Assembly: GCA_029882995.1 (NCBI GenBank)
Contig: JAOUJV010000003.1
Span: forward strand, 373 to 64,372
DNA length: 64,000 nucleotides
Direction of reading: 5' to 3'
Source: Gammaproteobacteria bacterium
GTDB lineage: Bacteria; Pseudomonadota; Gammaproteobacteria; DAOVJZ01
Under the pieces are notes generated by a model, which ran no database searches, was not told the DNA's origin, and worked only from the letters and a program-made list of their open reading frames with translations. Position numbers and translations under genes: made by a program. Positions 3,179-47,288 of the stretch are shown here, piece after piece (the first letter of the stretch is position 1; each line of letters opens with the position of its first letter).

Positions 3179-3793
3179 ATGTCTACAAAACCCACCCTCA
3201 CCTTCGCCTTACTGGTTGGTCTTGTCAGCAGTACCAGTCTGCTGGCTGATGATAATAAAGACCGTTTTATGTCTCGCTTTGATACCAATAATGATGGTCT
3301 CATCACACAGGATGAATTTAATCAGAAATCAGAAGAACGATTTAATCGTATGGACAAGGATCACGATGGCCTTGTTAATCAGAACGAATTTAGAGAATAT
3401 GCCAAATCACGCCGCCATAACCGTTCCATGCAATTCATGGATAAAGACAAAGATGGCAAGGTCACACGCGATGAATTCTTCTCTGCACAGCAAGAACGTA
3501 TTGAACGTAAATTCAGAAAAATGGATCGAAACAATGACAATGTACTTACCGAAGATGAGCTGAAAAAATCAAAACATGACAAAGGCAAGAAATTCAGCAG
3601 CATCTTCAAAAAAATGGATAAAAATGAAGATGGCAATGTTACCCGACAGGAAAGCCAGCAATCATGGAATAACTGGTTCCAACGCATGGATAAAAACAAG
3701 GATGGTTCAGTAACACGTGAAGAAGCCATTACCGCACGCAAGGAAAGACACAGGGAACATCGTAAAGACCGAGACGACGACAGGGACGATTAA
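3179..3793 (+). CDS. Secreted EF-hand calcium-binding protein with six canonical EF-loops
   Basis: Signal peptide (MSTKPTLTFALLVGLVSSTSLLA). Six 12-residue DxDxDG...E loops: DTNNDGLITQDE, DKDHDGLVNQNE, DKDKDGKVTRDE, DRNNDNVLTEDE, DKNEDGNVTRQE and DKNKDGSVTREE. Acidic C-terminal tail. Shine-Dalgarno-like aggag upstream. Confidence 0.85.
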   Translation: MSTKPTLTFALLVGLVSSTSLLADDNKDRFMSRFDTNNDGLITQDEFNQKSEERFNRMDKDHDGLVNQNEFREYAKSRRHNRSMQFMDKDKDGKVTRDEFFSAQQERIERKFRKMDRNNDNVLTEDELKKSKHDKGKKFSSIFKKMDKNEDGNVTRQESQQSWNNWFQRMDKNKDGSVTREEAITARKERHREHRKDRDDDRDD

Positions 3794-3795
3794 CT

Positions 3796-4368
3796 TTGAA
3801 TATTGAAGTCAGTGATGAACAACTGGTGGCATTGATTGGTAAAGGTGACAAACAGGCCTTCAACCAGTTTCTGACTCGACACCTGAAAACCATGCTGAGT
3901 TTTGCAACACGATACACAGGAAAGCACGATGCGGAAGACATTACACAGGAAACCTTTACCCGACTCTGGATGCATGCCGGCAAATGGAAAAATCAGGGGC
4001 TATCACCCAGAAGCTGGCTTTATCGCATCAGCTACAACCTGTGTATTGATCACTTGCGTAAACAACGCAATACAGGCAATGACAATGTGGTTGAACTCCA
4101 TACAACATCACGAGACGAACCTGAACAGCAGATTATTCAACATGCAGAACAAGGTGCAGTACAACATGTACTTGAATCATTACCCGAACGACAACGCACT
4201 GCTCTTGTTCTCTGCATGTGGCAAGGACTTTCCAATAAGGAAGCCGCTGCCAGTATGGACATCAGTATCGAGGCGCTGGAGTCCCTGCTTTCACGCGCAC
4301 GGCGAACCCTTAAAAAACAACTACTGGAACAACAAACAGACACAAAGGAACTGAAACATGAATCATGA
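3796..4368 (+). CDS. ECF-type RNA polymerase sigma-70 factor (TTG start in the ORF track; the true start may differ)
   Basis: Sigma-70 region 2 and region 4 features (DAEDITQETFTRLW, LSNKEAAASMDISIEALESLLSRARRTL), about 190 aa. It starts 3 nt after the stop of the EF-hand gene. Confidence 0.85.
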   Translation: MNIEVSDEQLVALIGKGDKQAFNQFLTRHLKTMLSFATRYTGKHDAEDITQETFTRLWMHAGKWKNQGLSPRSWLYRISYNLCIDHLRKQRNTGNDNVVELHTTSRDEPEQQIIQHAEQGAVQHVLESLPERQRTALVLCMWQGLSNKEAAASMDISIEALESLLSRARRTLKKQLLEQQTDTKELKHES

Positions 4369-4831
4369 ACGCGTAAAAACCCTGATTGATTGTTATGGTG
4401 CCGATGCCGAACGCTGGCCACAGGAGGAAATGGAAGCCGCCATCATGTTGATTGATAACTCACCTGAATTAATTGCCTATCAGGATGATGCACGTGCGCT
4501 CGACAAACTGATTAACAACCAAAATATTCAGGATGATATCGATACCCATGCCCTTGCCAGCCGTATTATGGATAGCCTCCCGCAACAGGAACAAACCAGA
4601 TCAGTCAAGGCACCCTATTTTGCCTTTGCTTCTGCTGCAACTGTCGCACTGATCTTTGTCAGCACCTGGTTACTGCAACCGGTGACTATGGAAGCACCCT
4701 TTGTAGAAATAAATAACATTGCACAAACTGAATTTGAAGAATGGGCCTGGGAAGAAACCCTCGACCAGACCCCATTGACCCTGGCAGAAAACAATGAACC
4801 TGCTGATGAATGGTCATTTATGGAAATATAA
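4358..4831 (+). CDS. Putative membrane-anchored anti-sigma factor
   Basis: Overlaps the sigma gene by ATGA. 157 aa with a single transmembrane segment (APYFAFASAATVALIFVSTWLL), a cytoplasmic N-terminal domain and an acidic periplasmic tail. This is the typical position of a cognate anti-sigma. Confidence 0.6.
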   Translation: MNHERVKTLIDCYGADAERWPQEEMEAAIMLIDNSPELIAYQDDARALDKLINNQNIQDDIDTHALASRIMDSLPQQEQTRSVKAPYFAFASAATVALIFVSTWLLQPVTMEAPFVEINNIAQTEFEEWAWEETLDQTPLTLAENNEPADEWSFMEI

Positions 4832-33486: not shown

Positions 33487-33585
33487 CCTTCTCCCTCCGG
33501 GAGAAGGCCAGGATGAGGGGGTATACAAAACAAAAAATTATTTATTTTAATCCCCTCACCCCCACCCTCTCCCTGAGGGAGAGGG
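33487..33585. repeat. Two REP-like GC palindromes (CCTTCTCCC-TCC-GGGAGAAGG and CCCTCTCCC-TGA-GGGAGAGGG)
   Basis: Direct reading. The same motif recurs at 36700-36725. Confidence 0.7.
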
Positions 33586-36691: not shown

Positions 36692-36693
36692 TC

Positions 36694-36745
36694 TTTATCC
36701 CCTCTCCCCTTGCGGGAGAGGGTTAGGGTGAGGGGATAATAAGTT
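36694..36745. repeat. Nested REP-like palindrome (ttatcccctctcccc-ttgc-gggagagggttagggtgaggggataa)
   Basis: Perfect inner and outer inverted repeats immediately after the permease stop. Confidence 0.7.
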
Positions 36746-36759
36746 TGCCGACTATGTCG

Positions 36760-36960
36760 GCGCTTTATTTCTATTGCGGGGATTCGCCCCCGCGCGACGA
36801 AATACTTTTCTCTTGCGTGTCCAAGAGAAAGGTATTCAAAAGAGAAGGACACCCAACTGCTTGCCCTTCGGGTTCCCTCGGTGCTCATAAAAATCTGGAG
36901 TGAATCACAACTCGCGCGCGGCCTTCGGCCACACCGGCTCGAACAGGGTGATTCACAAAT
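36760..36960. other. Cluster of independent perfect stem-loops (possible structured ncRNA or integration scar)
   Basis: Four stem-loops read directly: gcgggg-attcg-ccccgc (about 36774-36791); ctttctcttg-cgtgtc-caagagaaag (about 36806-36831); gtgaatcac...gtgattcac enclosing ggcc-ttc-ggcc (about 36899-36957). Confidence 0.4.
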
Positions 36961-37128
36961 TCCAGATTTTTACTCCGCGCCTCGGCTACGCAGATGGGAA
37001 TAAAAATCCAATATTCAATCACTTAGAAATATACCAACTATGTTTATTGAACCATAAAAGAAAGGTCGTTAATATCAATCGATGTTTAACTGTTTTTGAA
37101 CTATTCGCTTCTTTGTTAATGTGAAGAT

Positions 37129-38370
37129 ATGGGTCCTATAACTCTTTTTGATAAATCTTTCCTGCAATCACTCAGTATCGATGAATCTGTGTGGTTTGAT
37201 CATTTCTTTATCACAAATATATGTCCACTTTTTTACGTTGAAACGTTAGCTGATCTCAAAAAGTCAGTACGAAATGGCCGAACACAAGAACAAGAGGTTG
37301 GGATTATTGCAGATAAATTTCCTGATATGCATAGCTCTCCAAATGTTCAACATATCACTGCATGTATTAATGAATTATTAGGTTATCCTGTGCCAATGAC
37401 AGGCCAAATCCTTTTAGCAGGAGGACGTCCTGTTAAGGTAGAAGGCCAATCTGGAATCGTGTTTGATAAATCACCCGAAGCAGAAGCCTTTTCACGTTGG
37501 CAAAAAAATGAATTCCTTGAGATTGAACGACTATATGCGCATGGGTGGCGCGAAATGGTAACAAATCTCAAACTTAATGAAATGGGAGATCATTTTAAAA
37601 AACTCGGGATTGATGGGAAAACATGTAAAACATTAGAGCAGGCAAAAGCACTTGCTGATCAAATAGTAGCCTCTACTGAGACTCCTTTTGAACGAATGTA
37701 TCTTGCTCTTTTATTTTTGAATATAGATCAAAAATATCATCAAGAAATTCTTCATCGTTGGAGCATAATGAATTATCCACCTCTCACACGCTATGCCCCA
37801 TATGTTGCTCATGTGTATACGGTTGAATTGTTTTTCCAAATAGCTTTAGCAGCGAATCTGATTTCTAGTGAACGGCCCTCCAATCGTGTTGATATTGGTT
37901 ATTTATTTTATCTGCCTTTTTCTACGATATTTGTTTCTTCAGATAAATTACACAGAAAATGTGCTCCATTATTTCTTCGTGAAGATCAACAATATATCTG
38001 GGGTCCAGAACTGAAAAACGGATTAAGAAATATTAACGAACACTATCTTGCTTACCCAGAAGAAAAAAAAGAAAAAGGGGTAATGTCTTTTGCGGGCAAC
38101 CCACCAACAGAAGGCGATTTTTTAATATCTGAAATATGGGACAAACACTTTCCGAATTGGCGGGAGAAAAAAGAAGTAGATCTCTCCGATAAGAATGTAA
38201 AAAATAATGAACTAGTAGAACATCTGAAAAAATTTACTGATGCACCAACTCTTTCACAGAACGAAGTAGATTTTGATCCCTCTAATGCAGAGAGCATGTC
38301 ACTCCAAAGAAGCGTAAGAAAAACCAAGGGGTCATGGTTTCAATTACCTAAAGACCTTAAGACAAATTAA
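37129..38370 (+). CDS. Hypothetical protein, AT-rich orphan gene (413 aa)
   Basis: Long ORF of markedly lower GC than its neighbours. No motif I can assign. The N-terminus ITLFDKSFLQSL is weakly PIN-like (hydrophobic-x-D-x-S/T). Confidence 0.6.
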   Translation: MGPITLFDKSFLQSLSIDESVWFDHFFITNICPLFYVETLADLKKSVRNGRTQEQEVGIIADKFPDMHSSPNVQHITACINELLGYPVPMTGQILLAGGRPVKVEGQSGIVFDKSPEAEAFSRWQKNEFLEIERLYAHGWREMVTNLKLNEMGDHFKKLGIDGKTCKTLEQAKALADQIVASTETPFERMYLALLFLNIDQKYHQEILHRWSIMNYPPLTRYAPYVAHVYTVELFFQIALAANLISSERPSNRVDIGYLFYLPFSTIFVSSDKLHRKCAPLFLREDQQYIWGPELKNGLRNINEHYLAYPEEKKEKGVMSFAGNPPTEGDFLISEIWDKHFPNWREKKEVDLSDKNVKNNELVEHLKKFTDAPTLSQNEVDFDPSNAESMSLQRSVRKTKGSWFQLPKDLKTN

Positions 38371-38398
38371 GGATATAAGAATAAACTCTGTGGTTCAA

Positions 38399-39724
38399 TC
38401 ACTTCTCAAATAAAGCAATCGCCTCAACATGCGCGGTATGCGGGAACATGTCCATCACTCCAACACTCACCAATTTATAACCATGCTTGTTAACGAGTTC
38501 ATCCGCATCACGCGCGAGTGTAGCCGGATTACAGGAAACATAGACTATCCGCCTGGGGTTGGTTTTAGGCAGGTGCTCGATGACTTCGAGTGCGCCTGTA
38601 CGTGGCGGGTCGATCAGGATTTTGTCCCATTTTCTTTTTAGCCACGACATGGTGTCGAGATCCTGTGTCAGGTCGGCGTAATGAAATTCAACATTATCAA
38701 TCTTATTGCGCTTTGCATTGGTATTGGCGCGTTCGACCAGTAATTTGTCCCCTTCCACACCGGTGACCTTGCCGGCCTTGCGTGCAATGGGTAGGGTGAA
38801 GTTCCCCAGACCACAAAACAGGTCAAGTATGTCATCCCCTTCTTCCGGTTCCAGGAGTGCAAGTGCATGGTTGACCATTTTGCGATTCAGGTTGGCGTTG
38901 ACCTGTATAAAGTCGGAGGGTTCAAAGGTGTAATCCACATCATAATCCGGTAACTGGTAAGTCAGTGTTTCCGCTTCCGGAAATATAAGATGGATTGAAT
39001 CCGGTCCTTCCGGTTGCAGGTAAATCATAAAATTGTGTTGTTCACCAAACGTGATGAGTTTGTTTTTATCTTCATCGGTGAGCGGTTCGAGATGACGAAA
39101 TACCAGCCCGGTTTTATTATCACCCACCGCGACTTCAATTTGCGGGATCTTGTCATGAATACTCAGGCCTTCAATCAGGCTGGCCATGTCTTTCAGTTTT
39201 TCACCTGCTGAAGGATGCAACACATGACAGCGATTGAGTTCGGCAACATAAGGTGCGCGTTTTTCACGAAAACCGACCAGTACCTTGCCCTTTTTGATTA
39301 CGTGTTTAACGCCAAGCCGGGCACGACGACGGTAGCCCCACGGGTTATCAGTTAACGGTGGCAGGATATTTTGTGGCGTGACCTTGCCGATGCGCTCAAG
39401 GTTGTCGAGCATGACTTGTTGTTTTGACCGGATCTGCGCTTCGGGTGACATGTGTTGCAGACTGCAACCACCGCACACGCCAAAGTGTTCGCATTTTGGC
39501 TCTACCCTGTCGGGCGATGCCTTTTTAACCTCAACAGTGCGGCCTTCATCAAACTTGCGCCGCTGTGATGTGTAGACAAATCCGATTTCTTCACCGGGCA
39601 AGGCACCGTCGATAAAAATAGCCTTGCCATCAAGATGCGCAACACCGCGGCCATCATGGCTTAAGGATTCAATTTCCACAAAAACAGTTTCTGCGGGGAG
39701 TTTTTTCTTACGACGTCGACCCAT
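38399..39724 (-). CDS. rlmD: 23S rRNA (uracil1939-C5)-methyltransferase RlmD
   Basis: TRAM domain, an Fe-S Cys cluster (CEHFGVCGGCSLQHM) and SAM-methyltransferase motifs (DLFCGLGNFTLPIA). Confidence 0.9.
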   Translation of the reverse strand: MGRRRKKKLPAETVFVEIESLSHDGRGVAHLDGKAIFIDGALPGEEIGFVYTSQRRKFDEGRTVEVKKASPDRVEPKCEHFGVCGGCSLQHMSPEAQIRSKQQVMLDNLERIGKVTPQNILPPLTDNPWGYRRRARLGVKHVIKKGKVLVGFREKRAPYVAELNRCHVLHPSAGEKLKDMASLIEGLSIHDKIPQIEVAVGDNKTGLVFRHLEPLTDEDKNKLITFGEQHNFMIYLQPEGPDSIHLIFPEAETLTYQLPDYDVDYTFEPSDFIQVNANLNRKMVNHALALLEPEEGDDILDLFCGLGNFTLPIARKAGKVTGVEGDKLLVERANTNAKRNKIDNVEFHYADLTQDLDTMSWLKRKWDKILIDPPRTGALEVIEHLPKTNPRRIVYVSCNPATLARDADELVNKHGYKLVSVGVMDMFPHTAHVEAIALFEK

Positions 39725-40498
39725 TTAATTTTGCCAAGCAGCCAAGAACTCATTTAAATGCGGCTTATTCTCTTCTTTTAAGGAATCACGCACTACCTGA
39801 CATTCTGTTTCATAGCCTTCCTGTGACAAGTGTCCACGCATGAGTTCAAAACGTAAATATACCAGGTAGGTATTTAACACATCCGTTTCGCAATAGTTGC
39901 GGATAGCCTTGATTTCACCGGCCTGATATTGATCCCATACCTTGGCCCCGCTCATACCCATTTTTCCGGGGAAACCTAACAGGGTGGCAATCTTGTCCAG
40001 CGGTGCATTCGCGCGTGGCTGGAAACCGGCCAGCACATCCATTAAATCCGTATGACGCCAGTGATAACGGCTTTGATAATTATTCCATTTGAAGGACTGA
40101 TCGTCCTCACCCGTATCCCAATATCGTTGCGCCTCAATACCATGCAACAACGCACGGTAATTCAGTACCGGCAGATCAAATCCACCACCATTCCATGACA
40201 CAAGCGTCGGTGTGTATTTATCAATACCATCGAAGAAACGCTGGATGATTTCTTTTTCGGATGAATCTTCTTCACCGATTGACCAAACCTTGAAACGATT
40301 GCTTGAGCGCAGTACTACCGAGATCGCCACCACGCGATGCAGGTAATGGCGCAAAAAATCCGAGCCGCCGGTTTCCTGTCGACGTTGATGAAACATGACA
40401 TTGGCAACATCCTTGTCATCCAGACCTTCGAGATCATAAATACGACAACCACCGTCGGTATCGGGAATGGTTTCAATGTCAAAAACAAAGACGTTCAT
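39725..40498 (-). CDS. Predicted 3'-5' exonuclease, PolB-exo-like RNase H fold
   Basis: VFVFDIETIPD (Exo I D-x-E motif). 257 aa. Confidence 0.65.
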   Translation of the reverse strand: MNVFVFDIETIPDTDGGCRIYDLEGLDDKDVANVMFHQRRQETGGSDFLRHYLHRVVAISVVLRSSNRFKVWSIGEEDSSEKEIIQRFFDGIDKYTPTLVSWNGGGFDLPVLNYRALLHGIEAQRYWDTGEDDQSFKWNNYQSRYHWRHTDLMDVLAGFQPRANAPLDKIATLLGFPGKMGMSGAKVWDQYQAGEIKAIRNYCETDVLNTYLVYLRFELMRGHLSQEGYETECQVVRDSLKEENKPHLNEFLAAWQN

Positions 40499-41616: not shown

Positions 41617-43635
41617 ATGAACTTTGTTTTACAAAAAAAATATTTGATCCAACTTATTCTGGCTTGTTTCTGCTTCATACATACCAGTTTCATACTAGCC
41701 AGCTCACTGGAAGATGATTTTACCGGTGATATGCCAATCATTTTGAGTGCTACCCGTTTAGCACAACCGCAAAATGAAGCGCCGGTCGCCACCACAATTA
41801 TTGATCGGAAAATGATTGAGGCGATGGGTGTCACCGAAATTCCGGAAATTTTCAGAATGGTACCGGGTTTTCAGGTCGCCTTCTCTGACGGAACAATTCC
41901 TGTTGTTACTTACCATGGCCTGAGTGATGAATATGCACGACGCATGCAAATACTGATCGATGGACGTTCTGTTTACACACCCATGTTTGGCGGTCCTGAA
42001 TGGGCTGATTTGCCACTGGCAATTGAAGACATCGAACGCATCGAGGTCATCCGTGGCCCTAATGCGGTTACTTATGGCGCCAATTCATTCCAGGCTGTGA
42101 TCAATATCATTACACGCAGTGCAGCGGAAGAATATGGTCATACTGCAAAATTTATAAAAGGGAGCAAGGACACAAATCACACCTTTTACCGTTATGGTTT
42201 CCAGCATGAGAATATTAATACCCGTATCAGTTTCAGACACCAGGATGATCATGGTACCAAACTTGATTTCGGTGACCCTGCAAAAAAATTCATTGGCGAC
42301 AGCAAGATGGTCAACATGTTTACCCTGCGCTCGGATATTCAGATAGATAATAAGAACTCTTTTGAAGTCCATCTTGGTGGAACAGATAGCTGGATGGAAA
42401 AAGGCACTGGCGATCACTCTTATCGAAACTTTCATAAGAAACACTCCCAGAGGCATTACCAGTTGTTGCGATGGCGCAATATATCATCCACGAATAGTGA
42501 AACCACGATTCAATTTTTTCACAATTTTAATAAAACTGATGACACATGGCTTTCCAAAGATTTGACCCCTATAGGGCTTGCGGGAAAATATTTATTGAGA
42601 TCAGAAGACACTATAGATCAGCGCATTGATCTTGAAGGGCAACATATAGTTAATTTCAATAAAAATAATCGACTGGTATTTGGAGCTAGCATAAGGAAAG
42701 ATTCGGTCGAATCATATCCTTTTTTTACAACAAACAAAAAATTCAATAACTATATTTATCGGGTTTTTGGTAACAGTGAAAACAAATTTGGTAATCTTCT
42801 GATTAACACGGGGATGATGATTGAAAACAATTCAATCACCGACACTGACATTTCCCCCAGGATTGCGCTTAATTATCATGTGAATAAAAAACATACTCTA
42901 AGAACCAGCATTTCAAGAGCCTACCGAAACCCTGTTGTTTTTGAAGAGTTTGGCGACCATAGATATGTAACAACCGATGGAAGCACAACAAATTTCAACA
43001 TTTGGGCATCTGGTGGGTTAAGACCGGAATCTATACTATCAAAAGAGATAGGTTATATTTTCCAGGATACAGAAAATGGGTTGTTTTTAGATGCAAAACT
43101 CTTCAGAGATTCGATAAAAAACATTATAACCTTTGCGGACGATAGAGTTCCTCCAGCTGAGGATAATTATCCTATTGACCTTTTGGCTGAGGATATAAAA
43201 AACCTGAACTGGGCCAAGGTTGAAGGAATAGAAACACAGGTTAAATATACCCCTGACAAAAAAAATTACCTGATAGCTAACTATGCCTACATTAACGCAC
43301 AAAGTGATAATGTCAGTCTTGACGACGAAAATTATCTAAGTCGCAGTGTTCCAAAGCATAGTTTCAGCCTGTTTTTATCTCATAATTTTGGTAACAACTT
43401 TTCAAGCAGTCTTTCTTATTTTAAAGTCAATGGCATGAGTTATTTAGGATCTGGAGGACCAGTAAAAAATTATAACCGCGTTGACATGAGACTCGCCTAT
43501 GACAAAAGGCGCGGGAACTCCAATATAAAAACAGAATTATTTGTGCATAATATGTTAGGGCATCAATACTATGATTATGAAGAAGCGGCAGAGCATGTAA
43601 GACAGATTTTTGTGAAATTTACTCTTAAATTTTGA
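41617..43635 (+). CDS. TonB-dependent outer-membrane receptor (AT-rich gene)
   Basis: Signal peptide, a plug (ATRLAQPQNEAPVATTIIDRKMIE...IEVIRGPNAVTYGANSFQAVINIITR) and a C-terminal ...FVKFTLKF. Confidence 0.85.
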   Translation: MNFVLQKKYLIQLILACFCFIHTSFILASSLEDDFTGDMPIILSATRLAQPQNEAPVATTIIDRKMIEAMGVTEIPEIFRMVPGFQVAFSDGTIPVVTYHGLSDEYARRMQILIDGRSVYTPMFGGPEWADLPLAIEDIERIEVIRGPNAVTYGANSFQAVINIITRSAAEEYGHTAKFIKGSKDTNHTFYRYGFQHENINTRISFRHQDDHGTKLDFGDPAKKFIGDSKMVNMFTLRSDIQIDNKNSFEVHLGGTDSWMEKGTGDHSYRNFHKKHSQRHYQLLRWRNISSTNSETTIQFFHNFNKTDDTWLSKDLTPIGLAGKYLLRSEDTIDQRIDLEGQHIVNFNKNNRLVFGASIRKDSVESYPFFTTNKKFNNYIYRVFGNSENKFGNLLINTGMMIENNSITDTDISPRIALNYHVNKKHTLRTSISRAYRNPVVFEEFGDHRYVTTDGSTTNFNIWASGGLRPESILSKEIGYIFQDTENGLFLDAKLFRDSIKNIITFADDRVPPAEDNYPIDLLAEDIKNLNWAKVEGIETQVKYTPDKKNYLIANYAYINAQSDNVSLDDENYLSRSVPKHSFSLFLSHNFGNNFSSSLSYFKVNGMSYLGSGGPVKNYNRVDMRLAYDKRRGNSNIKTELFVHNMLGHQYYDYEEAAEHVRQIFVKFTLKF

Positions 43636-43645
43636 ATTAAAATAA

Positions 43646-44602
43646 ATGGTAGTAGTATTTAAACATAAAACAGGATTTATTTATCCCCGCATAATACGGT
43701 ATGCGGCAATGATTTCTCTTTATGTTTTATCCGGCCTATTCTTCACTGCTCACGCAGATAATGATTTCATAATCACATACGTAATATCTGATGACAGAGA
43801 AATATACAATGAATTTATTCACAAAATTAATCATAAGAAATATTCCGTATTAAATGTTGAGCATTTTTCTTCCAAGACACTTGAAACCTTAAATACTGAT
43901 CTATTCATTACTATTGGTGCAAAAGCAACCAGAAAGGTAATGGAAAGCTCAAAGAACAAGAATTTACTGGCCCTTTTTATAACAAAAACAAACTATCTGG
44001 ATATTTCAAAGAAATTTAATCGTAAGTTTAGTGCCATTTTTATTGATCAGCCTGTTTCACGGCAGTTAAGACTGATTAAATCTGCATTCAAAGAAAAAAC
44101 ACATATTGGCGTTGCTGTCAGCAATCAATCCAGAATGCATATCCCGGAACTTGTTGAGAGCGGTAATCACCTTGGCTTGAGGATTCATATTGAAACACTT
44201 CCTGATCCTGATAGTATTCACCATATCATCAGAAAGCTGGCTGATAATAATGACTTAATTCTGGCCATGCAAGATAGCAATCTCTATAACAAATATACGA
44301 TACAGAATATTCTGATGACAACTTATCATGCAAATATACCCCTTATCGGCTACTCCAGACCTTATGTACAGGCTGGTGCATTAATGAGTGTGTATACGTC
44401 TATTGATAATCTCGCCCTTCAAACTAATGAACTTATTAAACAGGTAATAAAGGGAATGAATTTACCTTCTCCTGATTACTGCAAGTATTATTCTATTGAA
44501 TTAAATCATCAGGTGGCTAATTCACTTGCAATAAATCTTGATGACAAATCAGTTTTATTAAAACGTCTAATCAACCTGGAAGACAGGTATCAACATGAAT
44601 AA
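43646..44602 (+). CDS. Periplasmic solute-binding-like protein (ABC-type periplasmic component fold), putative co-sensor
   Basis: 318 aa with an N-terminal hydrophobic segment. Two-lobed PBP-like organisation. Overlaps the downstream kinase by 8 nt. Confidence 0.5.
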   Translation: MVVVFKHKTGFIYPRIIRYAAMISLYVLSGLFFTAHADNDFIITYVISDDREIYNEFIHKINHKKYSVLNVEHFSSKTLETLNTDLFITIGAKATRKVMESSKNKNLLALFITKTNYLDISKKFNRKFSAIFIDQPVSRQLRLIKSAFKEKTHIGVAVSNQSRMHIPELVESGNHLGLRIHIETLPDPDSIHHIIRKLADNNDLILAMQDSNLYNKYTIQNILMTTYHANIPLIGYSRPYVQAGALMSVYTSIDNLALQTNELIKQVIKGMNLPSPDYCKYYSIELNHQVANSLAINLDDKSVLLKRLINLEDRYQHE

Positions 44603-47288
44603 GTGGGGGATCAAGACACAAGCTTTTATCCTTGCCCTCGTGCCAGCCATTATTATTGCCGTCTCGCTTTTGTCTTATTTTCTTTATTCGCAGATCAATC
44701 TAGTTAATAACAATCTTAATGAGCGCGGAGTCAGTATGGCAAGGCATCTGGCTTACGAGAGCCAGTATGGTATTTTTTCCGGCAACATACAGTCCTTGAA
44801 ACGACATACCGATGAACGCGTTCATGATGAAGATATACGTTCAATTATTATTCTGGATAAGGATAAACACATTCTTGTTAATAGTGGTTATACATCCGAT
44901 TCAGATTCAATATTAGAGAATATAGATGATGTTAATCATCAAGTCAGAGTTCCTTCCAGTAATTCCATTTTATTTATCTCACCAATAATTTCTCCGCAAC
45001 TTGATATTGACGAATTTGATGAAACTAACGCTAATATGAAAAAAATAATCGGTTGGTTGATGGTTGAGGTATCTCTTGATAGCACTGACAAACAAATCAG
45101 GACGGTTATTGCAAATACACTTTTAATAACGGCTCTTATAAGTATAATTTCCATTTTTCTGGCCATAATGATAAGCAGGAATGTAACTTTACCTATTCTC
45201 TCATTATCCAATATTGTTAAAAGTATTGGTGATGGCATCCTCTCATCACGTGCTGAAGAAAAATCAGGTGGTGAACTTCGAATACTTGAATCTGGTATTA
45301 ACAAGATGGCTGAAGATTTACAGGCATTACAGGAAAATCTGCAATCACAGGTAGACATGGCGACCACTGATCTGAAAGAAACACTTGAGCTTCTTCAAGA
45401 AAAGAATATCGAGCTTGAAGTTGCCAGAAAAGACGCCACAGAAGCCAATAAAATAAAATCCGAATTTCTTGCCAATATGAGTCATGAGATTCGCACCCCA
45501 ATTAATGGAATTATCGGGTTCGCGGACTTGATGCTTACCTCAACAAAAGATACAACTCAAATCAGTCATCTTGACATGATAAAGAAATCATCAATGAATC
45601 TACTTGGGATAGTTGATGACATTCTTGATATGACAAGAATTGAGGCTGGAAAACTCAATATTAACAGTGAGCCACTGAATCTGAGAGACTGTGTTGAGCA
45701 GGTTGTTAAAATGATGGCTCCATTAGCGTTTAAAAAAGATCTTGAACTAAACCTGCTTTATTATTCTGATGTACCTGAAGAGTTTTACGGTGATTCTCTA
45801 CGTATCAACCAGATAATCACCAATCTTGTAGGTAATGCTATCAAATTCACAGATACTGGTTCAGTAATAATTCGTATCATGATAGAAGAAGATGAGCAAG
45901 ACTTGTCAATGATAACATTTTCCATTAGTGATACAGGGAAAGGAATATCTGATGAACAAAAACATCACATATTCAAACCTTTCCTTCAAGGTGATAGTTC
46001 TACAACCAAACAGTATGGTGGCTCCGGACTCGGGCTTTCCATATGTAGCAGTCTTGTCAAAAAAATGGGTGGGAAACTGGGTCTTGATAGCAAGATAAAC
46101 AAAGGGGCGACCTTCTGGTTTACCCTGCCACTTACCAGAAATAACAACAAACCTCTATTTCATATTCCGGAAATACTTTCTGGTAAAAGAATATTCGTTT
46201 TTGACGCCAGCCCGATTTCCAGATTATCTATCAAACATTTGCTTGAAAAAGCCAATATTGATATTACAGATAACGGTGATGAGAAACATATACAGATTGC
46301 TCTAAAGGCTATCAATGCCAACCAGTATGATATCGTAATAATTTCATGTGAATTATCTGATATACCTTTTTTTGGAGAATCATTCTTTACCGGCGTTCGT
46401 AACAAAACCAAATTAAATATATTGGTTATAGCGCCTACAGTTGACAACTCGTTAATAAATACGATAAAGGATAATGGTGCTGATAACTGCATATCCAAAC
46501 CTGTAACAAGAAACCGGTTATATCGAGCACTTACAGATGTACTATACAACACCACCGTCATTGATAATTCCATACCCCCTCCACGACCACCTGCAAAACA
46601 CAATAAGTGCTCGCTAAACATACTCGTTGCAGAAGATAATGAAATCAATGCTAATCTGATGTCCGCTATTCTCGAAAAACATGGTGCGCAATGCAGTATT
46701 GCTGCTAATGGAAAAATAGCTCTTGATTTACTTTCCAGTCAGAAATTTGATCTGGTATTAATGGACATAAATATGCCTCTTCTTGATGGTGTTAGTACTG
46801 CAGTAGAAATACGTAACGACTGCTCCACCTACCAGTGTAAAATTCCGATTATTGCAGTTACTGCCAATGTAATAGATAAAGATAAGGAGCGTTTCTTAGA
46901 TGCTGGAATGAATGATGTTATCGTTAAGCCTGTCACAGAAAAATTAGTCTGGGGTACTATTAAAAAAATGGTGCAATGTGATTGTGAAATTAACGATCTC
47001 TTAACTGAAAATCTAGATGGCTTTATCCCTAATGATTTATACGACAAGGTTATATCAGAAATATCAGTACATAGTGCAGCAATAATATCTGCTTTAGAAC
47101 AAGATAATATGGAATTGCTTTTTAACCATACCCATAAACTGAATGGACTGTCTGCCCATTTCAATATCCCTTCCATTCGAGATGTTGCTGACAAACTGGA
47201 AACATTGATAAAGCACAATAAAGGGAAACCTGAACTTCAGATTCAGGTTGACAAATTACATACCGAAGTTGAAAAAATAAACAGCTAA
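44595..47288 (+). CDS. Hybrid sensor histidine kinase (unorthodox type: periplasmic domain, HAMP, HisKA, HATPase, pseudo-receiver, receiver, Hpt)
   Basis: Two transmembrane segments flank a periplasmic domain of about 140 aa. H-box ANMSHEIRTPINGIIGF and HATPase GGSGLGLSICSSLVKKMGG. The first receiver-like domain lacks the acceptor Asp (IVIISCELS), the second has it (LVLMDINMP). C-terminal Hpt motif HKLNGLSAHF. Confidence 0.85.
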   Translation: MNKWGIKTQAFILALVPAIIIAVSLLSYFLYSQINLVNNNLNERGVSMARHLAYESQYGIFSGNIQSLKRHTDERVHDEDIRSIIILDKDKHILVNSGYTSDSDSILENIDDVNHQVRVPSSNSILFISPIISPQLDIDEFDETNANMKKIIGWLMVEVSLDSTDKQIRTVIANTLLITALISIISIFLAIMISRNVTLPILSLSNIVKSIGDGILSSRAEEKSGGELRILESGINKMAEDLQALQENLQSQVDMATTDLKETLELLQEKNIELEVARKDATEANKIKSEFLANMSHEIRTPINGIIGFADLMLTSTKDTTQISHLDMIKKSSMNLLGIVDDILDMTRIEAGKLNINSEPLNLRDCVEQVVKMMAPLAFKKDLELNLLYYSDVPEEFYGDSLRINQIITNLVGNAIKFTDTGSVIIRIMIEEDEQDLSMITFSISDTGKGISDEQKHHIFKPFLQGDSSTTKQYGGSGLGLSICSSLVKKMGGKLGLDSKINKGATFWFTLPLTRNNNKPLFHIPEILSGKRIFVFDASPISRLSIKHLLEKANIDITDNGDEKHIQIALKAINANQYDIVIISCELSDIPFFGESFFTGVRNKTKLNILVIAPTVDNSLINTIKDNGADNCISKPVTRNRLYRALTDVLYNTTVIDNSIPPPRPPAKHNKCSLNILVAEDNEINANLMSAILEKHGAQCSIAANGKIALDLLSSQKFDLVLMDINMPLLDGVSTAVEIRNDCSTYQCKIPIIAVTANVIDKDKERFLDAGMNDVIVKPVTEKLVWGTIKKMVQCDCEINDLLTENLDGFIPNDLYDKVISEISVHSAAIISALEQDNMELLFNHTHKLNGLSAHFNIPSIRDVADKLETLIKHNKGKPELQIQVDKLHTEVEKINS

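Follow-up and report, generated by a model that had tools for sequence, protein, structure and literature searches.

Within a 64,000-nucleotide stretch of gammaproteobacterial contig JAOUJV010000003.1, which we refer to as the window, we examined an open reading frame (ORF) at 37129..38370 on the plus strand that starts with ATG and is a real coding sequence for a protein of 413 amino acids (aa). A preliminary description had presented this gene as an AT-rich orphan with a PIN-like start and as a candidate single-gene defence or abortive-infection module. Our proposal is that this horizontally acquired gene specifies a stand-alone PIN-like nuclease which requires metal ions and which probably acts as an effector in conflict or defence, with an inserted domain as its gate, and we assign this reading as a whole a probability of roughly 45%. 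The gene is foreign in composition, solitary and conserved, and its predicted product has a PIN-like core with the right residues in the right places. The gene and the parts of its product are as follows.

37129..38370, plus strand: complete coding sequence (CDS), 413 aa and stop codon (ORF list, homologue identity, and the ratio of nonsynonymous to synonymous substitution rates, dN/dS)
37129..37380, plus strand: N-terminal half of the predicted PIN-like core, residues 1-84 (AlphaFold2 (AF2), conservation, Foldseek)
37381..37863, plus strand: family-specific middle domain, residues 85-245 (fixed length, conservation)
37864..38064, plus strand: C-terminal half of the predicted PIN-like core, residues 246-312 (AF2, conservation, Foldseek)
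38065..38367, plus strand: C-terminal extension, residues 313-413, about 100 residues (alignments)

The AF2 model of the full-length protein had a predicted local distance difference test score (pLDDT) of 87.6 and a predicted template modelling score (pTM) of 0.87, and in the AF2 models strands (S) and helices (H) follow the order S1-H-H-S2-H-H-S3-(insert)-H-S4-H-S5-H. The N-terminal half is formed by S1 (residues 4-7), two helices, S2 (28-31), helix 33-44, helix 53-62, S3 (69-72) and helix 75-83, and the C-terminal half by the crossover helix 251-264, S4 (267-270), a helix, S5 (288-291) and helix 292-307. Between S3 and the crossover helix lies the middle domain, which consists of a β-hairpin (100-112) followed by about eight helices up to residue ~245 and bears the near-invariant pairs R123-W124 and W140-R141. 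Since its length is almost fixed in both subfamilies of the family described below (154-167 aa), it is an integral domain. No structural or sequence match was found for it.

When we compared the whole AF2 model with PDB and BFVD using Foldseek, nothing scored below E=0.26, and the only matches were low-probability Rossmann-like dehydrogenases, which we took as noise. Profile searches against PDB sequences likewise yielded nothing above noise (ferrochelatase, designed helical repeats). Recognition of the fold required that the inserted domain be taken out of the model. For this core model, the first row of the input alignment was the window protein without residues 85-245 and 313-413, and 101 unmodified homologues were placed below it. 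The resulting model (pLDDT 82.6, pTM 0.74) retained the same secondary-structure elements as the full model, and nearly all of its Foldseek matches with a probability of at least 0.8 were PIN domains, from many unrelated proteins. The principal matches, with template modelling (TM) scores and root-mean-square deviations (rmsd) for one of them, were as follows.

5h4g, P. horikoshii VapC4: E=3e-3, probability 1.00, the best E-value obtained with the core model
1v8p / 1v8o, PAE2754 (P. aerophilum): probability 0.84-0.99, TM-score 0.55/0.60, rmsd 4.4-4.7 Å
4ifd, Rrp44: probability 0.93
5f4h, archaeal RuvB-like helicase: probability 0.87-0.91
3ix7, T. thermophilus domain of unknown function: probability 0.90
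5ecw / 6sd6, Shigella VapC: probability 0.87 and 0.80 for the better-scoring chains
2hww, SMG6: probability 0.69-0.84
2dok, EST1A: probability 0.75-0.82

Further PIN entries scored lower (2fe1, 0.63; 6nkl, 0.57), and glutamate racemase appeared among the matches as noise (probability <0.35). From these models, we consider a PIN-like core fold to be very probable.

The PIN-like superfamily is characterised by a five-stranded parallel α/β/α sandwich, in which near-invariant acidic residues are found at three sites, namely after S1, at the N-terminal end of crossover helix H4 and after S4, the last of them often with a supplementary Ser or Thr; a fourth acidic residue follows S2, and in VapC-like members it is a Glu in the helix after S2 (PMC5499597). 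Such a sandwich is indicated here by the AF2 elements and the Foldseek matches (TM-score 0.5-0.6, rmsd about 4.5 Å, marginal E-values). Conservation was evaluated in 207 sequences from both subfamilies, and strict invariance in a separate alignment of 149 sequences. Residues conserved in at least 95% of the 207 sequences were, in the N-terminal half of the core and the middle domain, D8, K9, P33, E38, D42, L43, V57, K63, W124, F129, A137, W140 and R141, and, in the C-terminal half, D255, Y258, L259, Y261, P263, F264, F268, S270, D272, H275, F289 and L299. E38, D255, S270 and D272 were strictly invariant in the 149-sequence alignment. When we placed the acidic residues on the model, D8 (codon 37150-37152) follows strand 4-7, E38 (37240-37242) and D42 (37252-37254) lie in helix 33-44 directly after S2, D255 (37891-37893) is in the N-terminal turn of the crossover helix leading into S4, and the S270-x-D272 motif (37936-37938 and 37942-37944) straddles the end of strand 267-270. 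By this mapping, which follows topology, D8, E38/D42, D255 and D272, together with S270, are predicted to occupy the canonical PIN active-site positions. A reading of E38...D42-L-K as a PD-(D/E)xK motif was rejected because the motif lies within a helix. The protein does have the N-terminal motif singled out in the preliminary description, and no other part of the family is as conserved; the PIN-like guess attached to it held at the level of the fold and of the active-site positions but gained no sequence-profile link.

Several results weigh against our proposal, first at the level of the fold. Pfam gave no match to any family for the full protein or for core-only sequences, and none to a PIN family in 110 diverse members. 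Using hhalign, we compared family profiles of the core and of the full length (effective number of sequences, Neff, 1.8-5.5) with Shigella VapC, FitB and a 120-sequence VapC profile; the matches to the VapC/FitB profile were not significant (E>=0.04), out of register and within the range of shuffled columns. As a control, the VapC and FitB sequences were recognised by PF01850, at about 1e-21. Judged by its sequence, the family is not a member of any curated PIN family, and it would at most form a novel and strongly diverged branch of the PIN-like superfamily, distinct in architecture. In addition, the Foldseek matches of the core were all weaker than E<=1e-3, and the core model is an artificial deletion construct. 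Finally, the cyclodehydratase RohQ (9c5w / 9oq8) was among the fold matches of the core with a probability of 0.7-0.89, a reminder that PIN-like folds are not always nucleases; this suggests that RohQ shares the PIN-like scaffold without being a nuclease.

The protein could be imagined as a non-nuclease enzyme on a PIN-like or Rossmannoid scaffold, such as a RohQ-like small-molecule enzyme, a phosphoesterase or a transferase. The presence of RohQ among the matches, the lack of sequence similarity to any nuclease family, the marginal E-values and the dehydrogenase matches of the whole model are all in line with such an enzyme. Against it, true PIN nucleases head the list of matches in both probability and TM-score, the PIN metal-binding positions are occupied by four or five invariant acidic residues and a Ser, and the gene was never found within a biosynthetic cluster. 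We regard a non-nuclease enzyme as quite improbable, and consider it likely that the family protein is an active nuclease.

The closest structural relatives are the VapC toxins (5h4g, 1v8p, 5ecw), which gave the best matches to the core and share with it the order of strands and helices, the acidic residue after S1, the Glu in the post-S2 helix, the Asp on the crossover helix and the [S/T]-x-D after S4 (PMC5499597). Unlike the family, however, VapC toxins are only about 130-140 aa long, and no sequence similarity between the two was detected. The family core is split by the integral domain of ~160 aa and followed by the extension of ~100 aa, and no VapB-type antitoxin or other conserved partner adjoins the gene. 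VapBC toxins are compact (about 130-150 aa, PF01850), whereas the present protein has three or four modules and no PF01850 match. Because there is neither profile similarity nor a VapB-type antitoxin, the family is not a VapBC system.

FEN-like nucleases provide a precedent for a substrate-handling insert, since they carry a helical arch that is inserted in the PIN-like core between S2 and H3 and positions the substrate (PMC5499597). The family shares with them a PIN-like core with an inserted helical module, but its insert lies between S3 and the crossover helix. No helix-3-turn-helix (H3TH) or helix-2-turn-helix (H2TH) element was detected, and FEN-like structures were not among the top Foldseek matches of the core. 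A third comparison is offered by DUF4411.1, an uncharacterised, monocistronic PIN-like bacterial family with four predicted acidic residues and no obvious antitoxin (PMC5499597). The present family resembles it in being bacterial and PIN-like, in having four acidic residues predicted for the active site, and in being encoded by single genes with no obvious antitoxin; in contrast, it has no Pfam match to DUF4411 or the PIN clan, and its proteins possess two extra modules where DUF4411 is a single domain.

We suggest the following mechanism. Both halves of a split PIN-like (VapC-class) Rossmannoid core would come together to form the active site, where the metal ions would be coordinated by D8, E38/D42, D255 and D272, along with S270 and H275. 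The protein would need Mg2+/Mn2+ for its nuclease activity and, like the VapC-like class, would most likely cut RNA as an endoribonuclease. The middle domain with its Arg and Trp residues may take the place of a separate antitoxin, gating the active site and/or recognising a substrate or a trigger. The biological role would be that of a single-gene conflict module, either an abortive-infection-type defence or a self-contained toxin; we favour it because the gene moves alone between distant phyla, in variable regions, and without a partner.

The gene had been called an orphan, and this description does not stand. A word-indexed search returned 1,920 homologues at E<=1e-3, and the best 120 of these are full-length proteins of about 415 aa with 55-80% identity. 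An exhaustive HMMER search gave 2,285 clusters (50% identity), of which 921 had E<=1e-30. The family is present in at least four phyla; named hosts include the gammaproteobacterial metagenome-assembled genome of the window itself, Parahaliea aestuarii, Planctomycetota, Terriglobia/Acidobacteriia and Candidatus Acidiferrales. A second subfamily of ~385 aa (20-29% identical to the query) was reached from the most divergent member, L096, and it lacks the last ~35 residues, which contain the KGSWxQ[VL]PK motif and are found only in the ~415-aa subfamily. The outward walk from L096 showed that the second subfamily is also unannotated, and no annotated bridge was met. Every source labels the family protein "hypothetical". 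There was no precomputed Pfam domain among the 240 matches listed in the word-indexed search and in the walk from L096, the full protein had no match in Pfam, NCBIfam or PHROGs, and Pfam on the 110 diverse members at E<=1 revealed no consistent family; a DUF3106 match in 8 of these members was rejected as noise (E>=0.009). The family is thus a large, previously unannotated, conserved bacterial family. Rare fusions were observed, namely a C-terminal DUF5677 in two members and a C-terminal SEC-C zinc-binding motif in one (P0133, P0176 and P0220), and two further members, P0179 (863 aa) and P0207 (787 aa), are extended by long stretches without any Pfam match.

The window protein is identical (100%) to MDH5189813.1, deposited as "hypothetical protein OEW89_01035", and a tblastn search of the window showed the gene to be single-copy. 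Compared with its closest homologue (L097), dN/dS was ~0.05 with synonymous sites saturated, and the gene is under very strong purifying selection. An identical copy lies at the same position in two metagenome assemblies made independently from one population, and the contigs from this population all carry the gene. That the ORF might be spurious, or a pseudogene in AT-rich intergenic DNA, is suggested by its low GC content and by an annotation that says only "hypothetical protein". The thousands of full-length homologues, the dN/dS value, the confident AF2 model and the identical gene in independent metagenomes refute this explanation and leave it next to no probability.

In composition, the gene agrees with what had been described. 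Its GC content is 0.366 (0.25 at third codon positions, GC3), compared with 0.456 in the wider flanks and 0.444 in the whole window, and along the ORF it runs at 0.32-0.39 versus ~0.50 in the immediate flanks. The reported richness of the protein in Lys and Glu (15.5%) and in Phe, Trp and Tyr (11.4%) is present, but the enrichment is modest only. The low GC content of the gene is not unique in the window, in which a block of ~5 kb at 42-47 kb is equally AT-rich (GC 0.34-0.39). This block (42000-47000) starts within a TonB-dependent receptor gene (41617-43635), which is nonetheless syntenic with cysK, the gene of a 257-aa protein (p257) and rlmD in many related genomes.

We then compared the position of the gene with that of its counterparts elsewhere. 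On its two sides lie the following intervals.

36692..37128, plus strand: host-specific upstream spacer, 437 nt, outside the shared unit (sequence, repeat and similarity searches)
38371..38398, no strand: 28-nt gap separating the stop codons of the ORF and the convergent rlmD (ORF list, sequence)

The rlmD gene occupies 38399..39724 on the minus strand and converges on the 413-aa gene with exactly the 28 nt between stop codons that had been reported. We compared 80 rlmD loci of related Gammaproteobacteria, whose RlmD is 55-61% identical. The block TonB receptor-cysK-p257-rlmD was widely conserved among them, the region downstream of rlmD differed from genome to genome, and neither the ATP-binding cassette (ABC) exporter nor a family member was present downstream of rlmD in any locus. 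Because this side of rlmD is variable and the exporter is absent from it, the gene lies at a synteny breakpoint. The earlier view of a gene wedged into conserved synteny needs to be corrected, since only the rlmD side is conserved and the macB-rlmD junction is not. The nearest species representatives (~60% RlmD identity) have unrelated genes downstream of rlmD. Two findings that the preliminary description had named as refuting its reading, conservation of the gene at this position in relatives and a match to a metabolic enzyme family, were not made. The 257-aa gene (39725-40498, minus strand) encodes an exonuclease-like protein of the RNase_H_2/DNA_pol_B_exo2 type; it is tightly conserved between cysK and rlmD, with 63-77% identity across many Gammaproteobacteria.

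Among 88 family loci, there was no recurrent neighbour family, the largest cluster being an ABC-F ATPase in 5 loci. A co-directional ORF (at least 40 aa) lay within 60 nt of the gene, on one side or the other, in only about one third of the loci, and these ORFs were heterogeneous; such an ORF abutted the gene upstream in 24 of 69 loci, again heterogeneous and mostly spurious-looking. A conserved partner or antitoxin was rejected, as none was found in the loci compared. With its low GC and GC3 and no recurrent or abutting partner, the gene is compositionally foreign and monocistronic, as had been noted. Nucleotide similarity between loci was limited to 37124-38371, that is, to the ORF, and the unit common to the loci is the bare ORF, with the hairpin-rich spacer being host DNA. 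In 28 of 46 loci the gene was more than 3 points lower in GC than its flanks, and in 5 it was above them (mean difference, -4.2 points); its GC content still correlated with host GC (r=0.74). This GC pattern points to repeated horizontal acquisition with partial amelioration.

The family was absent from 50,697 phage genomes, had one truncated match among 72,556 plasmids, and had three matches among 2.9 million viral contigs. L096, the most divergent full-length member (30% identity; 1205-2413), is located on an IMG/VR viral contig, and about 1 kb from it lies an ORF (3377-4417) that, read from its sequence alone, we take to be phage-capsid-like. The plasmid match, L177 on pACIX905 of Granulicella tundricola (NC_015060.1 113672-114367), covers residues 184-413 only, where the annotated CDS has 110 aa, and probably represents a decayed gene copy carried by a conjugative plasmid. 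A transposon or insertion sequence, an integron cassette and a TnpB-like element were rejected, since no conserved ends or flanks travel with the gene; the 28 nt that separate it from rlmD, its single copy in the window and the lack of a recurrent transposase or integrase neighbour also speak against a mobile element.

Movement of this kind could also be expected of a selfish, self-propagating or addiction-type solitary toxin-like nuclease that brings no benefit to the host and might favour its own transfer or retention. The occurrence of a bare ORF at unrelated sites in unrelated phyla, its high conservation despite horizontal movement and its lack of partner genes fit this possibility. The gene has, however, no terminal repeats or conserved flanks, stays single-copy in the window and lacks a conserved recombinase neighbour (one integrase-type match among the 80 neighbours surveyed below), and the decayed copy on the Granulicella plasmid shows that it can be lost. 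Moreover, we know of no PIN-based homing mechanism. We consider a selfish gene very improbable.

To obtain clues to function, we surveyed the 80 nearest neighbours in 20 family loci, with 74 genes on the variable side of rlmD in 37 loci as a control. PADLOC identified among the neighbours a type I methylase (1e-190), a CBASS cyclase (7e-140), a SAVED-nuclease effector (5e-167), SoFic (3e-118) and AbiEii (8e-72), and Pfam identified an integrase, HNH and ParB. The best PADLOC match among the control genes was 2e-30. Individual family members also neighboured a 666-aa HATPase_c_3 protein (L005 5859-7859), a DUF4145/HEPN-like protein (L001 9858-10514) and an MqsA/DUF4258 toxin-antitoxin pair (L003 9390-9895). 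The solitary, multi-phylum gene with its signature of horizontal transfer, its location in variable regions, the DUF5677 and SEC-C fusions and some defence neighbours together suggest a conflict gene. In the same way as single-gene anti-phage or abortive-infection nucleases, it is one gene with a predicted nuclease effector, is horizontally mobile and sometimes adjoins CBASS, restriction-modification, SoFic or AbiEii genes; unlike them, it has no match in PADLOC 2.0 beyond noise and is unusually conserved, and the role of the family is inferred.

To the objections concerning the fold, these should be added concerning defence. The neighbour sample is small, comprising 20 loci, and was scored per family and not per locus, and housekeeping genes make up most of the neighbours and all of those in the window. 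PADLOC, which had been proposed as a check, gave no significant match for the protein, the best being GajA (E=0.02, 11.6 bits) over a helical stretch. Identities of 55-80% across phyla are unusually high for a typical fast-evolving defence gene. Stand-alone DUF5677 was not among the ORFs reported as phage-protective in one preprint that tested it, and the DUF5677 fusion was set aside as a weak functional clue.

The most serious alternative is an accessory nuclease for RNA or DNA processing, acting, for example, in niche-specific RNA maturation or turnover or in structure-specific DNA repair of the FEN-like kind, with no part in defence or toxicity. The very strong purifying selection and the high identity across phyla suit an enzyme that acts on a fixed substrate better than a gene in an arms race. 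Housekeeping genes are frequent among the neighbours, the gene persists in independent samples of the population, the family is essentially absent from phages and plasmids, and the inserted helical modules of FEN-like nucleases position the substrate (PMC5499597). On the other hand, an accessory nuclease would not readily account for the patchy distribution (0 of 80 related rlmD loci), the lack of a fixed genomic position and of a conserved operon partner, the GC content systematically below that of the host, or the bona fide defence genes among the neighbours, and the insert stands at S3/crossover helix and not at the FEN arch site S2/H3 (PMC5499597). We hold this alternative to be unlikely. 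A role of the family in defence or conflict, as our proposal has it, is itself tentative and stands at somewhat less than even odds. A more specific version, in which the protein represents a new single-polypeptide class of defence, with a PIN ribonuclease inhibited by its own insert of ~160 residues and freed by a phage cue, seems rather unlikely.

The spacer upstream of the gene is hairpin-dense, as the preliminary description had stated. Its first ~300 nt (about 36692-36990) are GC-rich and contain several inverted repeats, and its last ~140 nt are AT-rich. Directly after the stop codon of the ABC permease gene lies a GC-rich palindrome at 36695-36739 (TTATCCCCTCTCCC...GGGTGAGGGGATAA) that resembles repetitive extragenic palindromic (REP) elements and is probably a repetitive extragenic element of the host; a 24-nt piece of it is repeated in inverted orientation at 33550-33573, between the HlyD-like and ABC ATPase genes. 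A terminator-like hairpin with a T-run at 36746-36762 ends the ABC exporter operon. The AT-rich stretch at about 36990-37128 is presumably the gene's own promoter region, and a simple sigma-70 scan found no plus-strand promoter upstream of the gene. An Rfam search of the spacer found no family, and the spacer had no nucleotide similarity to the regions upstream of other family loci. A 74-codon, GTG-initiated ORF (36900-37124) spans the hairpin-rich spacer and stops 4 nt before the ATG of the gene. Upstream of the family gene in other loci there is nothing similar to it at the nucleotide level, and it is therefore probably not a gene.

Nothing in the family lies outside known biology. If the version with self-inhibition and release by a phage cue is true, the gene would be a widespread, multi-phylum immune gene (>2,000 clusters) that is absent from PADLOC-DB 2.0, the one defence catalogue searched. 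If the role in defence is true, it would constitute a new single-gene immune or abortive-infection module, overlooked because neither Pfam nor PADLOC has a model that matches it and because whole-chain structure searches fail to reveal its fold. Should the predicted fold and activity be borne out, a fold, an active site and a testable activity could be assigned at once to thousands of bacterial proteins now called "hypothetical" in several phyla, and the PIN-like superfamily would include an unusual architecture, with a core split by an obligatory domain and no partner antitoxin.

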